Shown: piece by piece, positions 5,017 through 26,367 of the stretch
Layout of the letters: every line of letters starts with the position of its first letter
Position numbering within the stretch: position 1 is the first letter of the stretch
Virus record (IMG/VR): IMGVR_UViG_3300017754_002918
Location: 1-26,367 of that record
Direction: 5' to 3' (one strand)
Origin: a virus
Lineage: Duplodnaviria; Caudoviricetes
DNA: 26,367 nt
Translations under genes and position numbers: made by a program
Notes under the pieces: model-generated
What the model was told of the DNA's origin: nothing
The model's input: only the letters and a program-made list of their open reading frames with translations
Database searches by the model: none

Positions 5017-5868
5017 TCATTTAAGTAAATTAAAGTACACTTTAAACTTTTTTTGTCTATCTTCTATACCATTCAATCCACCATTCACACGTTTTGTTAG
5101 TTTTTTAACATCTTCCTCATCAGAACCACCATCACAAATATCCCATAACTTATTGTTGTTAAAAAAGAAAGCGGCAGACGCCAATGGATATTTTGTTGCA
5201 ACCAAATCAGGATTTGATATACAATCTTCACCAATAAAATCGGAGAATTTTTTATAGTTTGATCTACCCGTTAATTGAATATAACCACGACCTCTAAAAT
5301 TCCACCCATCACCAGATGCTTCATTACCATTACCATTTTGATTTGCATATACAAAATTCCCAATTTCTTCAGGTTTACGTGCAATTAACTTTGCCCTTCT
5401 GCGCTCAATTTCAGATATAACCTTATCTTTATTCACATCAAAATCACTTTTAAATGTTTTTAATAACAATTCCTCAGAATAATTTAAATTCTCCCGTATT
5501 GATTTAAACCCACCCGATTCATGTGAACATTGTGATAAAAAGTGAGCCAACCTTAAATTGGTTGTGATATTAAACTTCTTTGCAGTATCAGGTATTTGCA
5601 AAATAACTTCATCAGGAATCACACCTTTTAGTTTATGAATATTCAATCCAACAACTTCCTTAATTGGTTGTTCCACCTTTGTTATAACCTCAAACATTTT
5701 AGCCCATGTTTTATCACCAACAATACCATCAGCAGTTAAACCATTTTTTGCTTGCCAAGACTTAACAGCCTTATCAGTTGCCGGACCAAAATCACCATCA
5801 GCTTTTAAACCCAATTTTGTTTGCAACTTTTTAACATCGTCGCCCTTACTTCCCAATTTTAATAACAT
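5017..5868 (-). CDS. Endolysin: N-terminal peptidoglycan-binding domain plus GH19 (chitinase-like) muramidase
   Basis: PG_binding_1 pattern (GSKGDDVKKLQ...ADGDFGPAT...WQ...GL-ADGIVG); GH19 motifs AHFLSQCSHESGGF, FRGRGYIQLTGRSNY, TKRVNGGLNG. Confidence 0.92.
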   Translation of the reverse strand: MLLKLGSKGDDVKKLQTKLGLKADGDFGPATDKAVKSWQAKNGLTADGIVGDKTWAKMFEVITKVEQPIKEVVGLNIHKLKGVIPDEVILQIPDTAKKFNITTNLRLAHFLSQCSHESGGFKSIRENLNYSEELLLKTFKSDFDVNKDKVISEIERRRAKLIARKPEEIGNFVYANQNGNGNEASGDGWNFRGRGYIQLTGRSNYKKFSDFIGEDCISNPDLVATKYPLASAAFFFNNNKLWDICDGGSDEEDVKKLTKRVNGGLNGIEDRQKKFKVYFNLLK

Positions 5869-5913
5869 AATTATCTATTTTTTATACTGATAAATATTTA
5901 TAAAATAAAAATT

Positions 5914-6525
5914 ATGAACTTTACACAAAAACAAATTGAAGATGCTGTAAAAGCAAAAGGTTATGTCTGGTTTGATGACAAATCAAATAAAGGTTATGAT
6001 GTTAATATCGTTGGTGTTAGAAACAACAACCCATCTATAGCCGATAAAGTAACAAATGTCTTTGATGATATGTTAACCATATCATTTAAAGATGAAACAG
6101 GGACTTGGCAATTCTATAGTTGGTTAGCAACAACAGATCCAGGAAAGAAAGGAGTTCAGCAATTCCAAAACAAAAAAGGTGTTGCAAGACTTGTACCGGG
6201 ACAATATAGAAGTGTTTGGAAGGTAGATAAACACCAAGGTAAATATGAAGCACTTTGTCAACGTAATGGTAATGTAACCGTATACAGGGATTCAAATAAA
6301 GACCTCGTTTTTGAAGAACGTGTAACAGATACAGGTATGTTTGGAATCAATATCCATAAAGCAGGACAAGACTCAACCTGGGTGGAAAATTGGTCGGAAG
6401 GATGTCAGGTGTTTAAACGTGTGAAAGATTTTGACGTTTTTATGAAGATTTGTAAAAGAGCAGCAAAAATACACGGAAACTCATTTAGTTATACCCTATT
6501 AGAATCAACAGATATACAACAATAA
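5914..6525 (+). CDS. L,D-transpeptidase-like (YkuD fold) cell-wall enzyme
   Basis: GINIH...NWSEGCQV catalytic His/Cys pattern; the only convincing plus-strand gene, divergent from the endolysin. Confidence 0.65.
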   Translation: MNFTQKQIEDAVKAKGYVWFDDKSNKGYDVNIVGVRNNNPSIADKVTNVFDDMLTISFKDETGTWQFYSWLATTDPGKKGVQQFQNKKGVARLVPGQYRSVWKVDKHQGKYEALCQRNGNVTVYRDSNKDLVFEERVTDTGMFGINIHKAGQDSTWVENWSEGCQVFKRVKDFDVFMKICKRAAKIHGNSFSYTLLESTDIQQ

Positions 6526-7656: not shown

Positions 7657-7657
7657 A

Positions 7658-7732
7658 AAATGGGGTGGGATTCGAACCCACGGCACGAGGAACTTTACGT
7701 TACCTTTGCTCTACCCCCTGAGCTACCCACAT
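7658..7732 (-). pseudogene. Atypical or degenerate tRNA
   Basis: Good D arm (TAGCTCAGGGGGTAGAGC) and T arm, weak acceptor stem, non-canonical anticodon arm (AGG-T-AAC GTAAA GTT-CCT). Confidence 0.65.
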
Positions 7733-8113: not shown

Positions 8114-9601
8114 CTAATATATTACATAATCCATGTCACCACCCTGAATTATTTTAATTGGGAATCCCCATAAATAATGAATGTGATCCACAATGTCATC
8201 AATTTTATCCATACTTAATTCTTTACCATTAATAGATGTATAATCTAATGTTAATGTTCTGTCACCATAAATATCAACATCAAATACCTGAATGTCAGGG
8301 ACATATCTACTTCTATTATAATTCTCTGATAAAGCCATTCTTATACTTTTATAACCCTCATCATTATGTATTGCATTTATTTCATAATGATCATCATCAT
8401 AATCATCACGTACTTCAAATAACTTCATATCACGAATAACTTTTGGTGATAAATATTGTAATACAAATGATTCATCCCTAAAGTTCTCAACTATATATAA
8501 AAATTGTTCCTTCCAATTACCCTTACCTGCAATGTCGGGGAACCATCTATAATCTTCCTCTGTTGGTTCAAGGGACATCCTTTTAATGTCCTTGAATATA
8601 TTGAACCCTAATGTGTATGGATTCAAACCAGAATAATACTTTGAATCAAATTCTGGTTGGTATATCACATTTGAATGGTGGTGATAAAATTCAGTCATAA
8701 ATCCCTCATCCAAATACCCTTCTTCGTACATCTTATTAATGATCTCAAAGTGGGTAAATGTTGCGGTTCCTTCATTTATTGTTTTAGTTTGTGCTTGTGG
8801 ATAGAAATATTGTGCGGTCTTTCTAACAATCCTAACCAATTCACGTTCCCAAGTTTTTAAGTTTGGTGAGTTCTTCTCAATAAAATAAAGTATATTCTCC
8901 TCCGGTTGTTCGGGAAATCTTTTAATACGTTTTTTTGTTGGTTCGTCCGTCGGTAATGTTCTCCAAATATCATCAACCAATATACGATCATCTTCAATCT
9001 TCTTCTTTAATCTTTCCGCTTCCTCGGATGCTGATAACTTGCTTGGTTTTTTATATTTATCAACACCATAATTCATTAATACGTGACACGAATCCAATAA
9101 TGATTCAACTTCATCATAACCATATTTCTCCTCACATTTCTTAACAAACTTCCTTGCAAAATCCATATAATCAATTATGGAATCAGCATGTGTCCATTGT
9201 TTAAATAAATAATTATTCTTAAAGAAATGGTTATGACCCTGAACATGAGCATAAACCAATAACATCAGACAGGTGTCATTATCTTCTAAATTATATGAAA
9301 TACAAGGATTTGAATTAATTACCATTTCATACGATAACCCCATTCTTCCTTTTTTATAATTATTAGAATTAATAACATAATCCTTCCCAAACTTCCAGTG
9401 ATTATATGATATTGGAAGCCCAATTAATGAATATGCATCCAATAATTGTTCTGATGAAACTATTTCAAATTGATTCGGGTACACATCCAAGTTTAAATGT
9501 TCAACGGATAATCTATCAATTATTTCTGAAAATACTTCAATCGTATCTACATTCCATTCAGACTTTGAAAATAACTTTTTTATTTCTTCCTTAGTTCTCA
9601 T
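8114..9601 (-). CDS. spoVR: SpoVR/YcgB family protein
   Basis: GLPISYNHWKFGK, LSYEMVINSNPCI, AHVQGHNHFFKNN, QYFYPQAQTKTINEGTATF, NPYTLGF. Confidence 0.95.
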   Translation of the reverse strand: MRTKEEIKKLFSKSEWNVDTIEVFSEIIDRLSVEHLNLDVYPNQFEIVSSEQLLDAYSLIGLPISYNHWKFGKDYVINSNNYKKGRMGLSYEMVINSNPCISYNLEDNDTCLMLLVYAHVQGHNHFFKNNYLFKQWTHADSIIDYMDFARKFVKKCEEKYGYDEVESLLDSCHVLMNYGVDKYKKPSKLSASEEAERLKKKIEDDRILVDDIWRTLPTDEPTKKRIKRFPEQPEENILYFIEKNSPNLKTWERELVRIVRKTAQYFYPQAQTKTINEGTATFTHFEIINKMYEEGYLDEGFMTEFYHHHSNVIYQPEFDSKYYSGLNPYTLGFNIFKDIKRMSLEPTEEDYRWFPDIAGKGNWKEQFLYIVENFRDESFVLQYLSPKVIRDMKLFEVRDDYDDDHYEINAIHNDEGYKSIRMALSENYNRSRYVPDIQVFDVDIYGDRTLTLDYTSINGKELSMDKIDDIVDHIHYLWGFPIKIIQGGDMDYVIY

Positions 9602-10865
9602 TCGTTACATTTTTTTTAAAGAAGTCCCTAAATACTTCCCATATTTGATTCACTTCACCAATCTTACCAATTCTAAAGTTCTTATGTTCATTGGCTATCT
9701 TTTTATATGTCTGCCATAAATCACCGTCACTACGTCTTGCTATTTCAATATAAATCATATATTGGATTTTATCAAGTAAGTTCTTTTTTAATATTTCACC
9801 ACATTCTAACGCATCGGTTTGATCCCATACATCACCATCAGACGCTTGTGCTGCATAAATATTCCAATCCTTAGAATAACGCTCTTTAATAATTTTATCC
9901 ATAAGTGCCAATGCATCAAATACAATAGTTCCACCTGTTTCTCTTGAATTAAAAAATTCATCTTCAGATACCTCTTTTGCAACTGTGTGGTGTCTAATAA
10001 ATACGATTTCAATATTTTCATATTGTTTTGATAAAAACATATATAATAACATAAAAAATCGTTTTGCAATGTCCTTCTCCTTCTCCCCCATAGAACCCGA
10101 TATGTCCATTATACAAAACATAACCGCAGATGTTGTTGGAACCGCAACTTTCTCAAAATTATTATATTGCAAATCCACTTCTTCCATAAAAGAAATGGTT
10201 AACTTCATTTTTTTTAGTTTATCAATTTCTTTTAATATTTCAGCAATTTCATCATCACTTAAATCTTCATTATCCAATTTATTTTGAAGTTCTTTTATCT
10301 TCTTATCATAATATAAACCTGAAGCCATCTTCCTTGTTAAGGAATTTTTAAATGATTTTACAACATTCAACCTATTAGGTGATCCGGCATTAGTATAACC
10401 GGCACGTTTTTGTTTGAAGTTAACAATTGAATTCAAATGTTTTTTAACCATATCAGGAAGTTCAAGATCATTGAAGAAGAACTCCATAAATTCATCCTTT
10501 GAAATTGTGATAGTAAAATCATCTTCACCTATTGTCGGATCGTTTGAACCTTTATTACCTTTACCCTTACCATTACCCCCTTGTGGTTTTTTAATTCTAT
10601 CACCAGGGCTATATTCTTTATTACCGGGATTTACTTGACGTTTGTTTCCTGATTCATGATCATAACCAAACTGCGGTTCATTAACCCCTTTAACCGGGAT
10701 TTTAACACCCTTATCTGAAGAAGTTAAATCCTTTACATTTGTATTTTTAATAATGTCAGGTAAAGCTTTTTTAATTTGATCTTCAACCCTTTTGATAAGT
10801 CGCTGACGATTCTCAGACGACTTACCTTTAGGATTATTTCTTCTATCAATAATATTAATTCCCAT
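9591..10865 (-). CDS. yeaH: YeaH/YhbH (UPF0229) vWA-like protein
   Basis: IIDRR-x-NPKGKS-x-ENRQR, AVMFCIMDISGSM (MIDAS DxSxS), VFIRHHT, ETGGT, WNIYAAQASDGD. Confidence 0.95.
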   Translation of the reverse strand: MGINIIDRRNNPKGKSSENRQRLIKRVEDQIKKALPDIIKNTNVKDLTSSDKGVKIPVKGVNEPQFGYDHESGNKRQVNPGNKEYSPGDRIKKPQGGNGKGKGNKGSNDPTIGEDDFTITISKDEFMEFFFNDLELPDMVKKHLNSIVNFKQKRAGYTNAGSPNRLNVVKSFKNSLTRKMASGLYYDKKIKELQNKLDNEDLSDDEIAEILKEIDKLKKMKLTISFMEEVDLQYNNFEKVAVPTTSAVMFCIMDISGSMGEKEKDIAKRFFMLLYMFLSKQYENIEIVFIRHHTVAKEVSEDEFFNSRETGGTIVFDALALMDKIIKERYSKDWNIYAAQASDGDVWDQTDALECGEILKKNLLDKIQYMIYIEIARRSDGDLWQTYKKIANEHKNFRIGKIGEVNQIWEVFRDFFKKNVTNEN

Positions 10866-10866
10866 A

Positions 10867-12789
10867 TTAATTGGATTTTCTAACTCTTAAATACCAGTCA
10901 GTTAATAATTTAATTTGTTTGTTAGTGTAACCACGTTCTTTCATACGTTCAATAAAGTCGGAATGTTTCTTCTCATCATCTTTTGATGTTTTAGTAGAGA
11001 ATGATATAACAGGAATCAAATCTTCAGTTTTAGAGAATATTCGTTTTTCAATTACATTTTTAATCTTCTCATATGAATCCCACTTCGGTGATTCACCATT
11101 CTTAGCTTTATGTCTCAAATAAAATTGAACCAAGTCATTTCTAAAATCTTTTGGATTGGCAATACCAGCCGGTTTCTCAATCTTCTCAAGCTCATCATTC
11201 AATGCACTTCTATCAAATTGTTGTCCCGTTTCAGGATCCCTAAAGTCATTATCTTGACACCAATGATCGGCATATGTAATATATCTTTCAAATAAATTTT
11301 GCCCATATTCTTGATATGAATCAACATATGCTTTTTGAATTTCATCACCAATAAAATCAGAATATTTATGACCCAATGTTGATTTTAAAAGATTTAAATA
11401 AAATTGTTCAACCTCTTTTGGTAACTGAGCCTTAATAATTTCTTGTTCCAACACATAAAATAAATGTACAGGATTCGCAGCAACTTCTTCTGAATCGTGG
11501 TTAAATACTTTGGATAACACCTTGAAAGCGAAACGTGTTGATATCCCATTCATTCCTTCTGTTACACCCGCATCGTCTTTATATTCTTGAAGTGATTTTG
11601 CTTTTGGATCCACCTCTTTTAAATTTTCACCATTATAAACCCTCATTTTTGAGTACATCAAGGAATTCTCAGGTTTTTTAATACGTGTCATTACACAAAA
11701 TTGTGATAACAATTCCAATGTTTGTGGTGCACAAGGCGCATCAGATAAAGATGAATTTTTTAATAATTTTTTATAGATTTCAACTTCTTCATCAACCCTT
11801 AAACAATACGGTACTCTTACAATATAAACACGATCCAAGAACGCTTCGTTCTTTTTATCATTTGAGAATGATTCCCATTCAGACTCATTTGAGTGTGCCA
11901 AAATAATACCTTGGAATGGAATTGCCGGTAAACTTTCAGTTCCATTAAAGTTACCTTCTTGTGTTGCTGTTAATAACGGGTGAAGAACCTTAATTGGTGC
12001 TTTAAACATTTCAACAAATTCCATTAACCCTTGATTTGCTCTACATAACGCCCCTGAATAATTATATGCATCGGCATCATTTTGTGGGAATTCCGCCAAT
12101 TTACGAATATCAACCTTACCAACAAGTGCTGAAATATCTTGGTTGTTCTCATCACCAGGTTCTGTTTTTGCAACCCCAATTTGTGAAGCAATTGACATTT
12201 TTAATTTCCTAACACTAAATTTAGTCACGTCACCACCAAATTCTTCCAATCTTTTGGTTGCCCAAGGTGAAGGACAAGAAGGGACATACATTTTTTGAAT
12301 CCCATATTCCTTCTCCAATTCTGAACGATAAGCAGAGAATAAACCCAATGGATTCTCCCAAACAGGTGATACCTCACCGTTTGCAACCAAAACATAAATA
12401 TAATTTTGTTCCATTAATTGTTTTAGTCGCTCAGCCAATGATGATTTACCACCACCAACAGGTCCCAATAGATAAAGGATTTGTTTCTTCTCCTCAAGTC
12501 CTTGTGCCGCATGTTTAAAAAACGATACAATTTGTTCAATGGTATCTTCCATACCATAAAATTCACTAAACGCAGGATAACGTTTAATAATCTTATTTGA
12601 ATGGATTCTACTCAAACGCTCATCGTGTTTTGTGTCAACAATTTCAGGTTCACCAATCGCCTTTAACATTCGCTCAGCAGGTGACGCATAAATCGTTTTA
12701 TCTTTTTTACAAAGCTTCAAGAATTCTTCAATTGTCATATCATCTTGAACTTGCGCAAAATCATTTTTGATAGTTTTTAATAGGCTCAT
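10867..12789 (-). CDS. prkA: PrkA/YeaG family AAA+ serine kinase/ATPase
   Basis: AAQGLEEKKQILYLLGPVGGGKSSLAE (Walker A), KTEPGDENNQDISALVGKVDIR, EFVEMFKAPIKVLHPLLTATQEG. Confidence 0.97.
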   Translation of the reverse strand: MSLLKTIKNDFAQVQDDMTIEEFLKLCKKDKTIYASPAERMLKAIGEPEIVDTKHDERLSRIHSNKIIKRYPAFSEFYGMEDTIEQIVSFFKHAAQGLEEKKQILYLLGPVGGGKSSLAERLKQLMEQNYIYVLVANGEVSPVWENPLGLFSAYRSELEKEYGIQKMYVPSCPSPWATKRLEEFGGDVTKFSVRKLKMSIASQIGVAKTEPGDENNQDISALVGKVDIRKLAEFPQNDADAYNYSGALCRANQGLMEFVEMFKAPIKVLHPLLTATQEGNFNGTESLPAIPFQGIILAHSNESEWESFSNDKKNEAFLDRVYIVRVPYCLRVDEEVEIYKKLLKNSSLSDAPCAPQTLELLSQFCVMTRIKKPENSLMYSKMRVYNGENLKEVDPKAKSLQEYKDDAGVTEGMNGISTRFAFKVLSKVFNHDSEEVAANPVHLFYVLEQEIIKAQLPKEVEQFYLNLLKSTLGHKYSDFIGDEIQKAYVDSYQEYGQNLFERYITYADHWCQDNDFRDPETGQQFDRSALNDELEKIEKPAGIANPKDFRNDLVQFYLRHKAKNGESPKWDSYEKIKNVIEKRIFSKTEDLIPVISFSTKTSKDDEKKHSDFIERMKERGYTNKQIKLLTDWYLRVRKSN

Positions 12790-13771: not shown

Positions 13772-13978
13772 TCAAACAGCTTTAATTTCAACTACTATTT
13801 TTTTACCATCAACAAACAAAGGAATACTAATTGAGTCCTCTGTTGGGTGATACATTTTGGGAAATTGTTTGATTTCGTATTTCTGTTTTGTTTCTTGTGT
13901 TCCCCCAATTGTTTCCCACATTTGAAGTCCTTCTTGTATCTTTGTTGTGATACGTTCTACTTGTTTTGAGTTTTCCAT
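13772..13978 (-). CDS. Hypothetical protein
   Basis: ORF in the co-oriented run. Confidence 0.65.
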   Translation of the reverse strand: MENSKQVERITTKIQEGLQMWETIGGTQETKQKYEIKQFPKMYHPTEDSISIPLFVDGKKIVVEIKAV

Positions 13979-13983
13979 AATTT

Positions 13984-14532
13984 TTAACTTAAATAATTTG
14001 ACATATTTTTAGCAGCCTTAAAAGCCTCTTTCATATTTTCAATAATTTTTGAACCTCTTAACCTAAATGGGATAACATATGAAATTCCATCTTCATCCAT
14101 CCATTTTTTACCTAATTCATCTTCCGAATCATATAACTCATTAAATCTGGTTTCGTATTCATTCCATTGTTCTTCAGGATAATCTTCTTTAACAGGTTTG
14201 TATTTTGAATCGAACAATCTGTCACCAATTCTAAACATACTACCACCTCTATGCGTATACCCATACATTCCTTCAATCACGGGATTATCAGTTCCATATG
14301 TATCCTCAATAATAACCGCCGCGACACCATGTGGATGTCGTTCATCAATCATCATTTTATTATTTACATACCATCTAGCTTCATCAATACTACCAACATA
14401 TGTTCCATTTGGTGATAGGAATGAATTCTCTAGTGTATGTTCGTTGTTTGGTCCAAATGTGTGTGTCCCAATTTTACCTCCTGTTAATCTTTCAATCTCT
14501 TGGATTTCTTCTTGTGTGATTTCTTTTGTCAT
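13984..14532 (-). CDS. Hypothetical phage protein
   Basis: 182-aa ORF, YGYTHRG...FRIGD motif. Confidence 0.75.
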   Translation of the reverse strand: MTKEITQEEIQEIERLTGGKIGTHTFGPNNEHTLENSFLSPNGTYVGSIDEARWYVNNKMMIDERHPHGVAAVIIEDTYGTDNPVIEGMYGYTHRGGSMFRIGDRLFDSKYKPVKEDYPEEQWNEYETRFNELYDSEDELGKKWMDEDGISYVIPFRLRGSKIIENMKEAFKAAKNMSNYLS

Positions 14533-14584
14533 AACTTTAATTACTTTTTACATTTTTATGTGTTTTTGTCAAAACTATTTTATA

Positions 14585-14839
14585 TTAATAGAAATAACTA
14601 TAATATTCAAATGTGTAATAACTACCATATCTTTTACATATTCCGTGTCCTGTGTAGTTACTCAAAAGATATTGTTCGGCTTCATCATAACTACTATGTG
14701 TTACCTTAACGTGTTTAGGCCCTTCATTACGATATATTTGTCTCCAACCCCAAAACTTCTTTTGTTCTATCACCCATTCAACATTTCTTTCAGATGAATA
14801 AGCGTCGTGAAATAATTGTACTATTCTAAATTTTATCAT
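14585..14839 (-). CDS. Hypothetical protein
   Basis: ORF overlapping the thyA stop by 4 bp. Confidence 0.7.
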   Translation of the reverse strand: MIKFRIVQLFHDAYSSERNVEWVIEQKKFWGWRQIYRNEGPKHVKVTHSSYDEAEQYLLSNYTGHGICKRYGSYYTFEYYSYFY

Positions 14840-15669
14840 ATTGCCAATTCTAGTTTTGAACTTAACTTTGTTATCTTATCTATATTATACACTTTGAAGT
14901 CATCTATAGTATAATCATAAAAATTTTTATTATCAACCAATTCGATATATGGTAGATTAGTTTCCAATGGTGTTTTATTTAAAAGTTCAGTAACCGCATC
15001 AAAATGTCTATCATATATGTGTAGGTTCTGAACTAGGTGACAAAACCTACCTACTTTATAACCACAATGTCCAGCTATCATCATTTGTAAAGCCAGATAT
15101 TGGATTTTGTTAATAACTCCTGCAGTAATAAAATCATTTGATCTCTGAATTAAAGTCAAATCCAACACCTTATCTTCACCAACCTTTCTAACCGAGCAAA
15201 GGATTTCATAAGCACAAGGAAATAAACCACTTGTTTCCTCTAAATCAACATACTGATACATACTAATAATGTGTCTTCTACCAAATGGATCATTAACCAA
15301 ACCATTAAGTAATTTATTCATCAAGTCATATCTTTTGATTGTTGCCCCATATCTTTGTCCGATACTATCACCACCAATATTCCATTCATCCCACCAGTTA
15401 ATTCCCATTTCACGAGCCACTTCAAGTGATGATGTTTGTTTTTGGTATATCCAAAGTATTTCTTTGATGCCAGTTTTAATTGCCGTATTTCTTAATGTGG
15501 TGATTGGAAACTCACCTTTTGAAATATCATATTCCTCAAATACCTGTGTTATGAATCTAGAATAAGCTGGTGTTCCATCGGCGTATTTTGGTCTCGGATT
15601 CTCATCCCAAGAACCTTCTGACATAATCTTCGCTATGTTTAGAATATAATAATTGTCGGCTTTATTCAT
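14836..15669 (-). CDS. thyA: Thymidylate synthase ThyA
   Basis: FPITTLR, EILWIY, catalytic LFPCAY, QRSND, NLHIYDRH. Confidence 0.95.
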   Translation of the reverse strand: MNKADNYYILNIAKIMSEGSWDENPRPKYADGTPAYSRFITQVFEEYDISKGEFPITTLRNTAIKTGIKEILWIYQKQTSSLEVAREMGINWWDEWNIGGDSIGQRYGATIKRYDLMNKLLNGLVNDPFGRRHIISMYQYVDLEETSGLFPCAYEILCSVRKVGEDKVLDLTLIQRSNDFITAGVINKIQYLALQMMIAGHCGYKVGRFCHLVQNLHIYDRHFDAVTELLNKTPLETNLPYIELVDNKNFYDYTIDDFKVYNIDKITKLSSKLELAI

Positions 15670-16036
15670 AAACTTCTATTTTTGTTCCGTTATATTCAAG
15701 TGTTATTTGTTTAGTTGGTACATTTAGGATTTCACATTGTTCTACCCAACCTTCTTCACTTTGATTACCCAAAAATGTGTTTAATATGGGTAATATTTGT
15801 TTTGCCATCAATTTCCTATCTTCAAAACTCAACTCTCTTTCCTCAATCTTTAATCCCCACCTTTCAGAAAATTCATTATCGGTTTTACATCTATAAACAA
15901 ATTGTTCTTTTGAATGTTCCTTCACCTTAATAGGTTCAACACTATAAACACTACCATCATTTGGATATTTTTCAATAGTCCATTCGGTTTTAATACCATT
16001 CTCATAAATCGGTATTGAATATGATTCTTCACTCAT
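15662..16036 (-). CDS. Hypothetical protein (start re-assigned to MSEESY)
   Basis: The track's TTG start overlaps the upstream 59-aa gene. Confidence 0.65.
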   Translation of the reverse strand: MSEESYSIPIYENGIKTEWTIEKYPNDGSVYSVEPIKVKEHSKEQFVYRCKTDNEFSERWGLKIEERELSFEDRKLMAKQILPILNTFLGNQSEEGWVEQCEILNVPTKQITLEYNGTKIEVYE

Positions 16037-16046
16037 CTTTGTTTTG

Positions 16047-16226
16047 TTATTTAATACCAATTCCCTCTCCGTCAATGTATATTAACTTTACCGTTTCACC
16101 ATCACCTATAATTGTTAAAGTGGGATATTCATCATCTGGAACAGGATAGGTGGGTTTTATTTCATAACGATATTCATAACAAATTTTATCCACTTTATCA
16201 AGAAACTCTTTCATTTTATTTGTCAT
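16047..16226 (-). CDS. Hypothetical protein, 59 aa
   Basis: Not in the ORF track. MTNKMKEFLDKVDKICYEYRYEIKPTYPVPDDEYPTLTIIGDGETVKLIYIDGEGIGIK. Confidence 0.65.
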   Translation of the reverse strand: MTNKMKEFLDKVDKICYEYRYEIKPTYPVPDDEYPTLTIIGDGETVKLIYIDGEGIGIK

Positions 16227-16308
16227 CTTTTAAAATATGATTTAATTTTCATCCAAACTATTTCGGGATGATTCCGTAACCACCAAAAAAATATATAAAT
16301 TTTTTTCA

Positions 16309-16608
16309 TCAATCAATCATTTTATATGTTGTTGACTTAACTTCGTTGTCTTTTTCAACTTGGTGTCTATTCTTATGTCCTTCAATTACTTTTAGAGCAT
16401 CTTCTTCATTACCATACCTCACAGTAATTGTTTTTGACATACCAAATGAAACCCCAACCTTATGGATATTATACCAAACAATTTCTTGTGTTTGTCTGAA
16501 CAATTTTTTTTTAATTTCTAACTTACAAACTTGTGGTATATAAAGTTTTTCACCGTTATTTAGTTCTTCAATTTTAATTCTGTAGTGATTCATATTATAT
16601 TCTTTCAA
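16309..16608 (-). CDS. Hypothetical protein
   Basis: ORF in the co-oriented run. Confidence 0.7.
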   Translation of the reverse strand: MKEYNMNHYRIKIEELNNGEKLYIPQVCKLEIKKKLFRQTQEIVWYNIHKVGVSFGMSKTITVRYGNEEDALKVIEGHKNRHQVEKDNEVKSTTYKMID

Positions 16609-16855
16609 ATTCTTGTTTAACCAAATTTATTTCTTCATCTAACCTTTTGAGTTCACTAAAAATCATTTCTTTTATAACATCTTTATTATAAAAACTTACC
16701 TCATCTTTTCTTGGAAAAGGACCCCCTGTTGAAAATCCTATTGTAACCCCCAAACTACAAGAGTTTAACGCACTTTTTAACTTACGCTTCTGTATTTCTA
16801 ACCTATCAAGTTCTTGCTTGATTTTTTTTGCCTTTTCAAACTTTTCTATTTCCAT
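16595..16855 (-). CDS. Hypothetical coiled-coil protein
   Basis: ORF in the co-oriented run. Confidence 0.7.
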   Translation of the reverse strand: MEIEKFEKAKKIKQELDRLEIQKRKLKSALNSCSLGVTIGFSTGGPFPRKDEVSFYNKDVIKEMIFSELKRLDEEINLVKQEFERI

Positions 16856-16866
16856 TTTATTCTGTT

Positions 16867-17091
16867 TTAAAGATTAATGATTTCATCTTTTACTTGTTCC
16901 CAATATTCAAATTCTTCCTGAGTATCCCAATATGGTTTTGATTTTACTATTTCATCCACAGTGATTAATGCACATTGTTTAGCTTCATCATATCTAGATA
17001 CGATACTATTAATACCACTATAACTACCATTGTTTGGTAAACTATAATAGAACTTATCTACCAAGTTGTTTGCTCTTTCTTTTGGTTCCAT
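16867..17091 (-). CDS. Hypothetical phage protein
   Basis: MxPKERA..LV.KF...AKQCALI.VDEI...YW.QVK.EI pattern. Confidence 0.75.
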   Translation of the reverse strand: MEPKERANNLVDKFYYSLPNNGSYSGINSIVSRYDEAKQCALITVDEIVKSKPYWDTQEEFEYWEQVKDEIINL

Positions 17092-17098
17092 ATCAAAA

Positions 17099-17308
17099 TT
17101 ACAAATCCCATTTAATCATTCTATCGTCAGTAAGTTGTTCTATGATTGTGTTATCTTCAGATTTGTTATTAATTTTTTGAATAAATAACATCCATTCATG
17201 AATTAAATGTTCTTCACCAACACCAACATTTGCCAAATCATACCCCTTCATAAAAGAAGCCCTCATTTCTTCAAGGGTATATACGTTTCTTTCTCCCATA
17301 ATAAACAT
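17099..17308 (-). CDS. Hypothetical protein (start probably MGERN at 17299)
   Basis: ORF in the co-oriented run. Confidence 0.6.
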   Translation of the reverse strand: MFIMGERNVYTLEEMRASFMKGYDLANVGVGEEHLIHEWMLFIQKINNKSEDNTIIEQLTDDRMIKWDL

Positions 17309-19898: not shown

Positions 19899-20354
19899 TC
19901 ATCTACAATGATAATCAGCAGCCTTTGTTGCTATTTGGTTATTTGGTTTGATGTTTGTTTTGTAACCTAATGATGATGCCCAACCCACAGTTGCTTGAAC
20001 AAGTTTGGAACTAAAATGTCTATCATCACAATTATAATCTAAATCAATTTCTATTTTAACATTCATTTGTTTTGTTATCCATTCAGCCAGTTGAATTGAT
20101 TGTTCGGCTTCATTCCACAATCTTGTCCATTTATCTTTAATCTTTTTTGTTTTGTATTTGTGGTAAATATAATGGACACCTCTATTTCCATATCTATAGG
20201 CAATGGCAATAACATAAACAGTACTTCTTCTGTGATTTTGTGAATCAGTACCGATATGTATTTCAACCATTGGGTAGTCGTTAATTATATCCAATGTGTG
20301 TGTTATAACATCACTCACAACTTCTCCCGACACTTTCCTAAATAACTTCTTCAT
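19899..20354 (-). CDS. RNase H-like YkuK/DUF458 family protein (start re-assigned to MKKLFRK)
   Basis: IHIGTDSQNH, RLWNEA, EIDLDYN, IKP...ATKAAD motifs; the track start (TTG 20381) lies in the truncated repeat. Confidence 0.8.
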   Translation of the reverse strand: MKKLFRKVSGEVVSDVITHTLDIINDYPMVEIHIGTDSQNHRRSTVYVIAIAYRYGNRGVHYIYHKYKTKKIKDKWTRLWNEAEQSIQLAEWITKQMNVKIEIDLDYNCDDRHFSSKLVQATVGWASSLGYKTNIKPNNQIATKAADYHCR

Positions 20355-20359
20355 TTTTT

Positions 20360-20581
20360 TTAAATTGTATACCTCATCCAACTATCTGTAAAACAACAGT
20401 TGCTGTCAATTCGTTGTGACTCCCCTTAAATTGTATACCTCACCCAACGTGTGGTCATACCCAATGTAACAATAAATGGTTGTGACCCCTCTTAAATTGT
20501 ATACATCACCCAACTACCCAAGTAGTGTTTAACTCTGTTGTTTGAGTTGTGACCCCTCTTAAATTGTATACATCACCCAAC
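20360..20581. CRISPR. CRISPR-like mini-array 1: three full 36-bp repeats, one truncated repeat, three spacers
   Basis: Repeats at 20360-20382 (23-bp partial), 20413-20448 GTTGTGACTCCCCTTAAATTGTATACCTCACCCAAC, 20479-20514 and 20546-20581 GTTGTGACCCCTCTTAAATTGTATACATCACCCAAC. Unique spacers of 30, 30 and 31 bp (20383-20412, 20449-20478, 20515-20545). Confidence 0.85.
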
Positions 20582-20913
20582 CATTCCTTCGTTAAGTCTT
20601 GTATTTCTTTATGATATAGTCCAAAATTAGAACGTAAAAATGACCAAATATCATCATAATCTATGTTAACAATTTCATTTTTTGTATCGTAAATCATAAA
20701 ATTATAACCTTTTTTATAACGAAATAAAATCAAATGTCCTTTCTCTTTTGATTGAACTTGTTCCAAGTCATCAAATAAATGAAGAAAGTCCATCGGAGTT
20801 TCAATATTTAATAATTGACAAAATATATCAAAGTCACCTACCATACTTACAGTATCATTAACACCACTTTCTTTAATATTATCAATTAATGTTATTTCAA
20901 GTTGATTATTCAT
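20506..20913 (-). CDS. Array-associated hypothetical protein, paralog 1 (135 aa; start re-assigned to MNNQLE)
   Basis: 76/100 residues identical (hand count) to the 25995->26367 protein over MVGDF...RGVTT; its C-terminus is encoded by a repeat and a spacer. Confidence 0.85.
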   Translation of the reverse strand: MNNQLEITLIDNIKESGVNDTVSMVGDFDIFCQLLNIETPMDFLHLFDDLEQVQSKEKGHLILFRYKKGYNFMIYDTKNEIVNIDYDDIWSFLRSNFGLYHKEIQDLTKEWLGDVYNLRGVTTQTTELNTTWVVG

Positions 20914-20971: not shown

Positions 20972-22819
20972 TTATTTTACTTCCTCATAGTCAACATCAT
21001 CACCCATCGGTTCTGTTGTTGTTGATTCATACATCTTTTGACTTATTTCATGGAATTTTGAATTCAATTCATCTGTTAAAATTTTAACTTGTTCAATATT
21101 TTTATTTGTGTGTTGTTCTTTTAATTTTTGAATTGATGTTTTTATTTCACCCTTTTGTTCATCAGTTAATTTATCATCCAAATCTTTTAAGTGTTTATCA
21201 GCATTAAACAATGCACTATCAGCTGAATTCATAATATCAGCATCTTCTCTTAATTTCTGATCAGCTTCAGCATTTGCTTCAGCTTCTTGTTTCATCTTCT
21301 CTATTTCTTCTTTTGATAAGCCCGAAGATGATTCAATTCTAATTGATTGTGCTTTATTTGTTCCCTTATCAAGAGCAGAAACATTAATAATACCATTCGC
21401 ATCAATATCAAACGTCACCTCAATTTGTGGAATCCCTCTTTGTGATGGTGGAATCCCATCCAAGTGAAATCTTCCAATCGTTTTATTATCTTTTGCCATT
21501 GCTCGTTCACCTTGTAAAACGTGTATTTCAACGGATGGTTGGTTATCAGATGCTGTTGAAAAGACCTGTGATTTTTTTGTTGGTATTGTTGTGTTTGCGT
21601 CAATTAATTTTGTAAATACACCACCCATTGTTTCAATACCCAATGATAATGGTGTCACATCCAATAATAATACATCTTTAACATCACCAGCCAATACACC
21701 ACCTTGAATTGCTGCCCCCAATGCAACAACTTCATCAGGATTCACACCTTTTGATGGTTCCTTACCAAAGAAGTTTTTAACCGCTTCTTGAATTGTGGGA
21801 ATTCTGGTTGTTCCACCAACCAAAATGATTTCATCAATATCTGTTGTTTTTAACCCAGCATTTTTTAATGCCGTTTTGCATGGTTCAATGGTTCTTTTAA
21901 CCAATTCATCAATAAGTTGTTCAAACTTTGCTCTTGTTAATGTTACAACCAAGTGTTTTGGTATACCATCAACAGGTAACAAATATGGTAAATTTATTTC
22001 AGTAGATGATGTTGATGATAACTCAATTTTTGCCTTCTCTGCAGCTTCCTTTAATCTTTGTAACGCCATTGGATCTTCACTCGGATCAATGTTGTTCTCT
22101 TTTTTAAATTCCTCAACCAAAAAGTTAATGATGGCTTGATCAAAATCATCACCACCCAAATGTGTATCACCATCGGTTGATAGCACCTCAAATACACCAT
22201 CACCCAGTTCCAATACCGAAACATCATGCGTTCCCCCACCGCAGTCAAACACAACCACTTTTGAATCCTTGTTCTTCTTATCTAACCCATATGCCAAAGC
22301 AGCAGCCGTTGGTTCATTGATAATACGTCTAACTTTAAGTCCCGCAATTTCACCAGCTTCTTTTGTTGCTTGTCGTTGCGCATCATTAAAATAAGCAGGT
22401 ACAGTAATAACAGCTTCGGTTACTTCAGACCCCAAATAATCTTCAGCAGTTTGTTTCATCTTTTGTAGAATAACTGCCGATATTTCTTGTGGTGAATATT
22501 CCCTATCATCAATTTTAACTCTTGGTGAATTGTTTTTACCTTTAATAACTGAATAAGGTACACGTTTTAATTCATCTTTTACATCATCATAACTTGAACC
22601 CATAAAACGTTTAACTGATGATATTGTTTTTGTTGGATTGGTAACCGCTTGTCGTTTTGCAGGATCACCAACCTTACGTTCACCTTCACTTATGTACCCA
22701 ACCACAGATGGTGTTGTACGTTTACCTTCCCCATTTGAAATAACCACAGGTTCGTTACCTTCCATTACGGCAACACACGAGTTAGTTGTTCCTAAATCAA
22801 TTCCGATTATTTTACCCAT
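20972..22819 (-). CDS. dnaK: Chaperone DnaK (Hsp70)
   Basis: [64 protein letters not shown]; Bacteroidota-style [10 protein letters not shown] segment. Confidence 0.98.
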
Positions 22820-22902
22820 ACTTTTAATTATTTATTTGTTTATTTAATATTAATGAATTTTAATTCAACACAAATAATAACAAAATCATACCAAAAGGTA
22901 AA

Positions 22903-22936
22903 TACTGACAAAATGTCAGGTTTACTGACAAAATGT
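22903..22936. promoter_or_regulatory. Tandem operator-like sites upstream of dnaK
   Basis: TACTGACAAAATGT at 22903-22916 and 22923-22936 (20-bp period); the first is part of the palindrome CTGACA-AAA-TGTCAG (22905-22919). Confidence 0.65.
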
Positions 22937-22943
22937 ATTAAAA

Positions 22944-22973
22944 ACAAAAAACCCCAAACAAAAGTCTGAGGTT
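22944..22973 (-). terminator. Rho-independent terminator
   Basis: AACCTCAGAC-TTTT-GTTTGGGGTT then TTTTG. Confidence 0.75.
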
Positions 22974-22994
22974 CACATAGTAATAATTATTTTT

Positions 22995-23921
22995 TTACAT
23001 TGCGATAAAATCTTCTAACTTGGTAACCCAATTAATAGTCACAAAATCAGATTCCATACCATTCGCTTGTCTTACTTCTTCTGACGTTAACTCTTTATAA
23101 TTATAATATCGTTGGCTATAAGTGAATCCATTATCTAATAGTTCATCTGATATTTCATCAAAATCATCCATATCAATAGATTCACCAACTTCACTAGATA
23201 TCTTATTACCTATGGTTATAATTTTTTGTGATGTAACATCATAGTATAATTCATCACTATCCACTTCACCATTACCACCACAATAATCACAAGCAAAGTC
23301 ACCAGCACCCTCACAATTATCACATTGTTGGTACCTCTTACCTTCACATTCTGAACATTCAAAATTTCCTATACCACCACACGATGTGCATCTTATGTTA
23401 CCTTCACCATCACAATCATCACAATCCACTTCAATTTGATCACCATCGTCATCATCTTCGGTTTGAGTACCTGAACCATTACAATGTCCACATGTTTCAG
23501 TACCATCACCATAACATTCATCACAATCTACATGTCCATTTCCATCACAACTTCTACAATCAATTTCACCATTATCACAATAATCACAAGAAACATAACC
23601 AGCACCACCACAATCACTACATTCCTCTTTTATATTAACTTCATCATTATACCAATCAATTTCTACAACATACAAATTATTAATATTTCTAATCATATCA
23701 TCTTGTGACATATTGGGATCACTAATAATAAAATAAATGATAAAAATTATTTGAATTCTAGGAACTCCAGAATCTACTTTTGTTAATAATAACTTAGCAT
23801 AATAATCACTATTACAAAATTGATTTATAAATCTAGTAGTAACAAGTGATTTATCAGGATATTCATCCTTTATAAAATCATCCAAAGTTTTTGCAATTGC
23901 ATATAATTTTTTAAATTCCAT
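22995..23921 (-). CDS. Acidic protein with ten DnaJ-type CxxCxGxG zinc-finger repeats, no J domain
   Basis: CSDCGGAG, CDYCDNG, CRSCDGNG, CDECYGDG, CGHCNGSG, CDDCDGEG, CTSCGGIG, CSECEGKR, CDNCEGAG, CDYCGGNG; no HPD motif. Confidence 0.85.
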   Translation of the reverse strand: MEFKKLYAIAKTLDDFIKDEYPDKSLVTTRFINQFCNSDYYAKLLLTKVDSGVPRIQIIFIIYFIISDPNMSQDDMIRNINNLYVVEIDWYNDEVNIKEECSDCGGAGYVSCDYCDNGEIDCRSCDGNGHVDCDECYGDGTETCGHCNGSGTQTEDDDDGDQIEVDCDDCDGEGNIRCTSCGGIGNFECSECEGKRYQQCDNCEGAGDFACDYCGGNGEVDSDELYYDVTSQKIITIGNKISSEVGESIDMDDFDEISDELLDNGFTYSQRYYNYKELTSEEVRQANGMESDFVTINWVTKLEDFIAM

Positions 23922-25928: not shown

Positions 25929-26082
25929 TTAATTTGTATACCTCATCCAACAGCATCTAATGAAACTGGAACCATAACATTGGTGTGATCCCCCTTAAAT
26001 TGTATACCTCATCCAACGTTGATTGAACAACCTGCATTGCGTTGGTGTTGTGACTCCCCTTAAATTGTATACCTCATCCAAC
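25929..26082. CRISPR. CRISPR-like mini-array 2: two full 36-bp repeats, one truncated repeat, two spacers
   Basis: Repeats at 25929-25951 (23-bp partial), 25982-26017 GGTGTGATCCCCCTTAAATTGTATACCTCATCCAAC, 26047-26082 GTTGTGACTCCCCTTAAATTGTATACCTCATCCAAC. Spacers of 30 bp (25952-25981) and 29 bp (26018-26046). Confidence 0.8.
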
Positions 26083-26367
26083 CATTTCTTCGTTAACCCT
26101 TGTGTTTCCTGAAGATTCAAACCAAAATTAGAACGTAAAAATGTCCATATTTCATAATAATTTATATAAACATATTTATTTTTTGTATCGTAAACCATAA
26201 AGTTATGGTTTGGTTTATACCTGAATAAAATCAAGTCTTTATACTCTTTTGATTGAACTTGTTCCAAGTCATCAAATAAATGAAGGAAGTCCATCGGACT
26301 ATTTATATTTAATAATTGACAAAATATGTCAAAGTCGCCAACCATAGATATGGTATCTTTAACACCA
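25995..26367 (-). CDS. Array-associated hypothetical protein, paralog 2 (5' end beyond the window)
   Basis: Frame open to the window edge (GVKDTISMVGDF..., matching GVNDTVSMVGDF of paralog 1); C-terminus encoded by repeat, spacer and part of the next repeat. Confidence 0.85.
   Translation of the reverse strand, partial: GVKDTISMVGDFDIFCQLLNINSPMDFLHLFDDLEQVQSKEYKDLILFRYKPNHNFMVYDTKNKYVYINYYEIWTFLRSNFGLNLQETQGLTKKWLDEVYNLRGVTTPTQCRLFNQRWMRYTI

Follow-up and report, generated by a model that had tools for sequence, protein, structure and literature searches.

The window, by which we mean the whole stretch of DNA analysed (26,367 nt, positions 1 to 26,367 of the viral record IMGVR_UViG_3300017754_002918), represents a fragment, 7% complete as a virus record, of a large freshwater phage and carries endolysin-like genes and tRNAs. 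It contains two paralogous genes on the minus strand, A and B, each of which runs into a repeat-spacer array. In the list of ORFs of the window, the neighbors of both arrays are DnaK-like, RNase H-like and short genes, and no ORF of the size of cas13b is found near either array. The parts of the two loci are as follows:

20506..20913, minus strand: gene A, 135 aa counted from the start common to the homologs (the ORF is open from 20940)
20546..20581, minus strand: repeat A1, VI-B-like and 36 nt long, in frame from the third base of W111 to T123, the putative integration site
20515..20545, minus strand: spacer A1, 31 nt, reads as tail
20479..20514, minus strand: repeat A2, identical to A1, contains the stop codon of gene A
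20449..20478, minus strand: spacer A2, 30 nt, no stop in frame
20413..20448, minus strand: repeat A3, 3 mismatches with respect to A1
20383..20412, minus strand: spacer A3, 30 nt, stop in the repeat frame
20360..20382, minus strand: terminal repeat A4, first 23 nt only (ATG of the next gene at 20354)
25995..26367, minus strand: gene B, a paralog that matches A at 83% over 300 nt and loses its 5' end at the window edge
26047..26082, minus strand: repeat B1, 36 nt, in frame
26018..26046, minus strand: spacer B1, 29 nt, reads as tail
25982..26017, minus strand: repeat B2, 3 mismatches at the 3' end, contains the stop codon of gene B
25952..25981, minus strand: spacer B2, 30 nt, stop in the repeat frame
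25929..25951, minus strand: terminal repeat B3, first 23 nt only

In gene A, the in-frame repeat A1 encodes the end of WLGDVYNLRGVTT and is followed by the tail QTTELNTTWVVG and a stop codon at 20506-20508, tail and stop together corresponding to the 31-nt spacer plus the first 9 nt of the second repeat; in gene B the repeat (26047-26082) gives WLDEVYNLRGVTT, with the tail PTQCRLFNQRWMRYTI. The reading frames of the window thus agree with an earlier note on this DNA, made from the sequence alone, according to which the first repeat is translated in both paralogs and the tails are composed of the spacer and the start of the next repeat. The gene-proximal spacers are 31 and 29 nt long, as the note had it (complete lists: 31, 30, 30 for A and 29, 30 for B), the RG, D/E and V/I differences between the repeat copies were described correctly, and the stops it had placed in two 30-nt spacers are found in the repeat frame of two of the three spacers of this length, the third one being free of them. 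Sequences within 3 mismatches of the repeat occur at 3 places in the window, compared to 0 in 100 shuffles, and the terminal repeat of both arrays breaks off at nt 23, only a few bases away from the next gene. In array A this stub (window 20354-20382) shares its frame with the RNase H-like gene downstream (PF04308), and because no stop codon lies between the two, a stop-free in-frame version of array A would fuse gene A to that gene. As a separate observation, P0276, a relative, looks like a read-through fusion of an array gene with its downstream gene.

The arrays exhibit near-identical repeats of fixed length and unique spacers of near-fixed length, as is typical of CRISPR, while in place of a non-coding leader a conserved ORF runs into the first repeat. 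An ordinary coding tandem repeat (a false CRISPR) was rejected, as the spacers are unrelated, shift the frame and carry stops. A Racr or solitary repeat unit was also rejected, as the repeats of the window possess spacers and partner repeats.

The remainder of the window contains a three-gene run (8114-12789, minus strand), which we take to resemble the bacterial PrkA/YeaH/SpoVR operon, and, between the two paralogs (20972-23921, minus strand), a full-length gene that is presumably DnaK-like, together with a cysteine-repeat protein with a DnaJ zinc-finger-like match below the cut-off. Two head-to-head genes with endolysin-family matches are located at 5017-6525, one of them being the sole long plus-strand gene, and at 7657-7732 (minus strand) ARAGORN predicts a tRNA with a four-base anticodon, which adjoins a tRNA-Ser with a near-identical 25-nt end. 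Read in another frame, the region of spacer A2 (20449-20480, minus strand) gives FIVTLGMTT, which we assume to resemble a sugar ABC-permease motif; no genome match confirmed this resemblance.

The gene A protein matched no family in Pfam, PHROG or NCBIfam, and for its family no homologs were found among GenBank phages. Structure-based searches with the family protein were similarly uninformative (Foldseek against PDB: nothing at E<=0.001; Foldseek viral set: one match, to an uncharacterized phage protein; VIA structure comparison: best Z 4.0; Atlas: no usable match). The model of the gene A protein has a mean pLDDT of 89.5; the peptide WLGDVY, encoded by the repeat, lies at the end of a helix (residues 101-116, confidence 95) and is followed by a short strand (122-126) with falling confidence. 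Structure prediction, proposed earlier as a way to find out if this peptide is part of the fold, therefore places it at the end of a predicted helix.

A scan of 185,579 prokaryotic genomes with the pattern of the phage repeat returned only 2 matches, in Sphingobacterium hungaricum and in a Chryseobacterium, both being arrays behind Cas13b in Bacteroidota with the same orientation as in the phage gene. The window repeat and the Chryseobacterium repeat are identical at 21-23 of 36 positions; among 301 genomes of the order of the VI-B seed the pattern was found in one, the seed genome itself. By sequence, the repeat is a member of the type VI-B (Cas13b) repeat family of Bacteroidota, in agreement with the claim that it belongs to a true CRISPR repeat family, and from the repeat alone the host would probably be a member of the Bacteroidota. 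A close known relative is the VI-B array of F. columnare, for which PMC8092290 reports 36-bp repeats, transcription from the leader, a repeat with only the leader-distal end in common with the II-C repeat, and the gain of 28-32-bp spacers of phage and host origin via the II-C Cas1-Cas2 acting in trans. Since the geometry and orientation are the same as in this array, the phage gene would occupy the position of the leader.

Three related phages (L004, 8367-10141; L050, 3437-5154; L191, 744-2464) encode a 415-aa TnpB-like protein next to a non-coding array with repeats of the same family. The protein scores above the cut-off of NF040570 and below those of Cas12f2 and C2c8. Visual inspection reveals the acidic residues of RuvC; the gene is followed by about 110 nt of conserved intergenic DNA and then by 6-7 repeats of the VI-B type, which are separated by 30 nt of spacer and end in a stub of 23-24 nt. 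The locus looks like a compact phage system, in which TnpB is paired with a repeat of the Cas13b family. The window repeats share 22-25 of 36 positions with the TnpB-linked repeat, including 9-11 of the last 13 nt, and in L050 two gene-end arrays are located directly upstream of the TnpB-like gene. Such genes occur in 1 of 5 and in 1 of 25 records in two samples of fragments that are 5-64% complete (G001, G801 and L050 have one), and there is none within the 26-kb window (7% complete).

A protein search identified 427 homologs of gene A. A 13-residue motif is present in 119 of the 120 homologs listed, and the sequence behind it is hypervariable. For the nucleotide-level analysis we used 122 fetched loci and the window, with matches above E 1e-6 or without a placed W excluded, which gave 123 distinct motif genes. 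At least one spacer follows the motif gene in 86 of them; in the remaining 37 the array is lost or absent. Merging of arrays whose first spacers share a 12-mer reduced the 86 arrays to 78 with unrelated first spacers, of which 74 have a first spacer of 28-32 nt. The last repeat is truncated after nt 23 in 68/78, the identity dropping from 0.97 at nt 23 to 0.16 at nt 24. Several copies of the gene-end repeat are found per phage.

The array-less members are scattered on a quick tree of 118 gene bodies and many of them look decayed. The root of this tree is not resolved, and therefore we do not pick a direction between a helix end that became a repeat and a repeat that was captured into the gene. 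A profile search extended the family to 713 cluster representatives, with the helix-end motif in 118 of the 149 inspected; most of the distant ones have no visible second repeat. Two far homologs, P0295 and P0366, contain units of 12+10 residues with quite different repeats. They are long proteins, with tandem domain copies and then several such units with different repeat peptides. Array-less paralogs of L094 and L027, as well as L032, L077 and L112, have tails of 22-28 residues that look like fossil repeat-spacer-stub units, which suggests that spacers can become fixed coding sequence.

In a sister type of genes the whole array is in frame: all 10 units of one gene of L111 (region 13833-17250, minus strand) and all 15 units of the L174 gene (4217-5543, minus strand) comprise 22 codons and no stop. 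The array of L164 (9755-10550, minus strand) is in frame as well, each 22-residue unit consisting of 12 fixed and 10 variable residues. The L111 type has 2270 homologs, and of 465 short units 335 are 22 residues long. The translated L111 array is predicted as a low-confidence fold (pLDDT about 55). The predicted order of strands and helices is alike in the gene A family and in the head of the L111-type proteins, while profile comparison gave a probability of homology of only 0.2-0.3%.

The translated first spacers are depleted of stop codons. In-frame stops occur in 16 of the 78 first spacers, compared to 38.0+-4.2 expected from 2000 shuffles, and the protein set agrees (17/87). The depletion stems from the single-spacer arrays (7/58 in frame versus 105/290 in the other five frames, p=2e-4); multi-spacer arrays, which we take as recent, contain stops at the neutral rate (9/20). 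The direct comparison of first and later spacers (16/78 versus 10/26) is not significant (p=0.11). The earlier assertion that the spacers do not look protein-selected is thus accurate within the window; across the family it does not apply to the translated ones. Single-spacer arrays favor first spacers of 29 and 31 nt, lengths at which the reading frame closes within the next repeat, and only 17/58 have 30 nt, a length found in 27/30 spacers of the VI-B and TnpB-linked arrays. The composition of the tails revealed neither a hydrophobic nor a positional bias, so that selection may act on read-through rather than on the tail sequence. What is selected may be the reaching of the next repeat, for the sake of some tail length or of a coupling to the next gene. 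In 29 of the 39 single-spacer arrays without a stop, 4-11 nt separate the terminal repeat from the start of the next ORF, and the next ATG is likewise close in 3 of 7 arrays with a stop. There is no excess of promoters in the array (8 versus 9.3).

The repeat itself carries a double constraint. In 76 genes, repeat codons differ less than the gene body both in amino acids (0.284 versus 0.487) and at synonymous sites (0.219 versus 0.347), and they are rare codons with a GC3 of 0.47 versus 0.23; the most frequent codon ends in G or C in 6/10 repeat columns and in 7/75 columns of the gene body. With changes polarized by the family majority, third positions account for 31 of 46 changes in the coding copy and 34 of 80 in the terminal copy (p=0.009). 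All these counts of repeat constraint are inflated by shared ancestry, the rows being not independent. The gene-end repeats do not fold (mean z +0.5), and only the outer four pairs are kept, without covariation, while the repeat of L004 folds (z -2.6); it has to be kept in mind that folding energy alone gives weak values for two true VI-B repeats as well (z -0.1 and -0.7). The DNA ends GTTG and CA(A/C)C are conserved and the hairpin is not, hence the constraint on the repeat at the DNA level is not that of an RNA hairpin. Of the two signals that were to be compared, codon-position bias and RNA covariation, only the former is found, on the coding copy. Together with the peptide in the predicted helix and the nucleotide-level constraint, this bias upholds the idea of a dual-use sequence. 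The codon-conservative differences among copies, noted earlier as if each copy were selected as a peptide, are explained mainly by the duplication of inner copies from the coding copy; the bias belongs to the coding copy and was passed on by duplication.

This conservation bears on one rival explanation of the arrays, namely that they are neutral accidents, in which off-target integration at a repeat-like gene end creates a neo-CRISPR array and no selection is involved. Arrays are known to arise by off-target integration in E. coli (Nivala 2018, cited in 10.1101/148544), and the scattered loss or absence of the array in 37/123 genes would fit such a scenario. Neutrality does not, however, account for rare codons kept across genes that differ at 49% of their residues, for the depletion of stops in first spacers, or for the same 12+10 unit in the far homologs P0295 and P0366, and we regard it as very improbable.

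The presence of TnpB-like genes raises another question, whether the arrays are mainly a source of guide RNAs on the end of the mRNA, for the phage TnpB-like nuclease (repeat, then guide) or for Cas13b of the host, with the tail as an incidental product. The repeat family and the 23-24-nt stub shared with the TnpB-linked arrays, the similarity of the window repeats to the TnpB-linked one, the gene-end arrays directly upstream of the TnpB-like gene in L050 and the nucleotide-level constraint all speak for it. We nevertheless consider this function unlikely: the gene-end repeats do not fold and that of L004 does; the repeat behind the guide is truncated in 68/78, whereas Cas13b requires it whole, as reported in PMC13187072; TnpB-like genes are as rare in the fragmentary records as stated above; no target of the spacers was found in the DNA of related phages; and the depletion of stops is left unexplained.

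A gene-end repeat might also serve as a decoy, which absorbs Cas1-Cas2 together with prespacers or yields an RNA that occupies Cas13b, stop-free spacers being kept only for ribosomes that have to reach the next start. The proximity of the next ORF in 29/39 stop-free arrays fits the latter part, although arrays with stops are also close to the next ATG in 3/7; the several repeat copies per phage, the conservation of the DNA ends without the hairpin, the unbiased tails and the finding (PMC13187072) that extraneous guides reduce the Cas13b defense are compatible with it too. Against this stand our consideration that a sink would shield future rather than current infections, and only weakly, and the fully translated arrays of 10-15 units in the sister genes, which need selection on the protein. 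Furthermore, the known RNA decoys (Racrs) are solitary intergenic repeats, and the ORF-masked search described in PMC10651486 found none for type VI. We assign a low likelihood to a decoy function.

The arrays look, from the comparison of repeats, as if they were written by target duplication at the gene end. In 26 arrays, the average distance between the second repeat and the first one of the same gene is 1.4 nt, compared to 7.5 for repeats of other genes, and 20 of 36 inner repeats reproduce their own first repeat exactly, also where the latter is a local variant. Spacer A1 is missing in the relative L017 and in one contig of run X7, where spacer A2 serves as the tail (the older state), while runs X1-X3 contain pieces that cover spacer A1. 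Spacer A2 is the translated first spacer in L017, P0003 and P0333, and altogether 4 of 28 later spacers correspond to translated first spacers of other genes (212 tails compared). The swapping of tails envisaged in the earlier note is therefore borne out by these 4 of 28 spacers and by the contig without the first spacer. Extra gene-proximal units are seen in L016/L017, L045/L075 and L164/L174 (in the last two pairs the distal spacers are common and the proximal ones differ), and L022/L029 and L031/L039 have the extra unit at the distal end; three pairs thus speak for growth on the gene side and two against it, the latter being perhaps explained by distal loss. The GC content of the spacers (0.38, versus 0.28 in the genes) is suggestive of foreign DNA.

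Recombination also acts on the arrays, as the same tail is found on gene bodies whose last 60 residues are only 63-67% alike (P0051/P0077, P0012/P0044). We therefore asked if it could suffice, i.e. if no Cas enzyme is involved now and ordinary recombination between repeats reshuffles an old pool of 30-nt cassettes. The shared tails, the two pairs with extra distal spacers and the lack of both cas1 and protospacers in our searches would be expected in this case; a closed pool is difficult to reconcile with just 4/28 later spacers recurring among 212 tails and with 78 unrelated first spacers from 86 arrays, and new inner repeats copy the local first repeat exactly instead of being hybrids. The neutral stop rate of multi-spacer arrays is moreover that expected of fresh inserts. 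Recombination alone, a rather remote prospect to us, is ranked below writing by Cas1-Cas2.

Searches for the source of the spacers were negative. Local BLAST of 123 spacers against the fetched loci detected no protospacers, and neither did scans of IMG/VR for exact copies of 4 of the 5 window spacers. At the peptide level 13 non-self matches (7-8 of 9 residues) were obtained, compared to 9.2 in codon shuffles. The best match among GenBank phages (E 0.06, an Enterococcus phage) was taken as chance, and in 401 + 401 Bacteroidota genomes the best ungapped matches had 4 mismatches (L174 spacer) and 8 mismatches (window spacer). The cas1 gene was found in none of the 4 phage fragments searched and in neither of the two VI-B genomes searched.

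Our preferred explanation, to which we assign a probability of roughly 55%, is that the host Cas1-Cas2 inserts DNA of ~30 nt directly behind the last 12 codons, which double as the VI-B-like repeat, so that the newest spacer would become the new C-terminal tail. In an infected Bacteroidota cell, the II-C adaptation complex, acting in trans as on the VI-B array of F. columnare, would take the gene end for a leader-repeat junction, the gene body standing in for the leader. A prespacer would be inserted and 36 nt duplicated, and the protein would gain a 10-residue piece plus a cap set by the spacer length. Inserts that read through to the next repeat would persist by selection, and recombination between repeats would delete or move units and trim the arrays towards one spacer and a stub. 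The phage would probably benefit from a small protein whose variable tail can be renewed. Weighing against this explanation are the failure to find either a protospacer or Cas1, the need for a tolerant integrase, as the repeats of sister families differ widely, and the two pairs with a distal extra spacer.

Compared with known systems, the gene-end arrays resemble the VI-B arrays of F. columnare (PMC8092290) in the 36-nt repeat family and its orientation, in spacers of 28-32 nt, in leader-side growth and in the lack of their own cas1/cas2. They differ in being phage-borne, with coding sequence in the place of the leader and a translated first repeat and spacer, and in having no Cas13b, no repeat hairpin, a last repeat truncated at nt 23, no complete repeat behind each guide, and first spacers often of 29 or 31 nt. 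With the compact cas-less arrays of huge phages (PMC7162821) and the virus-borne mini-arrays (PMC6858448), they share shortness, host-like repeats and the absence of acquisition genes; unlike these, which are non-coding guide arrays with matched targets, they overlap a gene that is under protein selection, and our searches turned up no target. As in the neo-CRISPR arrays (Nivala 2018, cited in 10.1101/148544), an integrase would duplicate a repeat-like site off the canonical array, but those are laboratory accidents in E. coli, whereas here hundreds of genes share the conserved site, and both repeat and frame show signs of selection. Racrs and solitary repeat units are phage mimics of the host repeat too; according to PMC10651486 they are solitary, intergenic and non-coding, while the gene-end repeats lie in ORFs and gain spacers.

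Variation of the C-terminus of a phage protein is also a feature common to the gene-end arrays and diversity-generating retroelements (DGRs). In DGRs a reverse transcriptase mutates adenines copied from a template, whereas here unrelated DNA takes the place of the entire tail and 36 nt are duplicated, and a DGR was rejected since the tails share no template. In engineered acquisition reporters, spacer insertion is reportedly read out via the reading frame. Such frameshift reporters are synthetic constructs (PMC5583386, PMC3737337), unlike the phage loci, which are natural genes. Altogether, the gene-end arrays work like CRISPR adaptation, with a gene for a leader, and on the tested features do not belong with VI-B arrays, Racrs or DGRs. 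The overlap of gene and array is real and its mechanism is our interpretation; in the open-access full-text literature we found no description of such arrays and no natural array translated under selection.

More tentatively, at somewhat less than even odds, we speculate that these phages have domesticated the CRISPR integrase of the host as a protein diversifier, its target being the coding repeat at the end of a domain superfamily, so that captured DNA is turned into 10-residue peptides that are then selected, and some arrays have developed into repeat proteins. If true, this would be a case of natural CRISPR spacer acquisition writing into a selected reading frame, and a source of protein variation distinct from retroelements, inversion and slippage, in which the enzymes of adaptive immunity of the victim make new coding sequence for the virus. 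The loci would test the minimal requirement of the Bacteroidota integrase for leader and repeat, a question that PMC8092290 leaves unanswered. They show how arrays could arise from, or merge with, genes, and they point to a blind spot, as programs that mask ORFs or drop coding matches miss such loci. Finally, if the spacers are derived from the hosts, they name the hosts of these uncultured phages.
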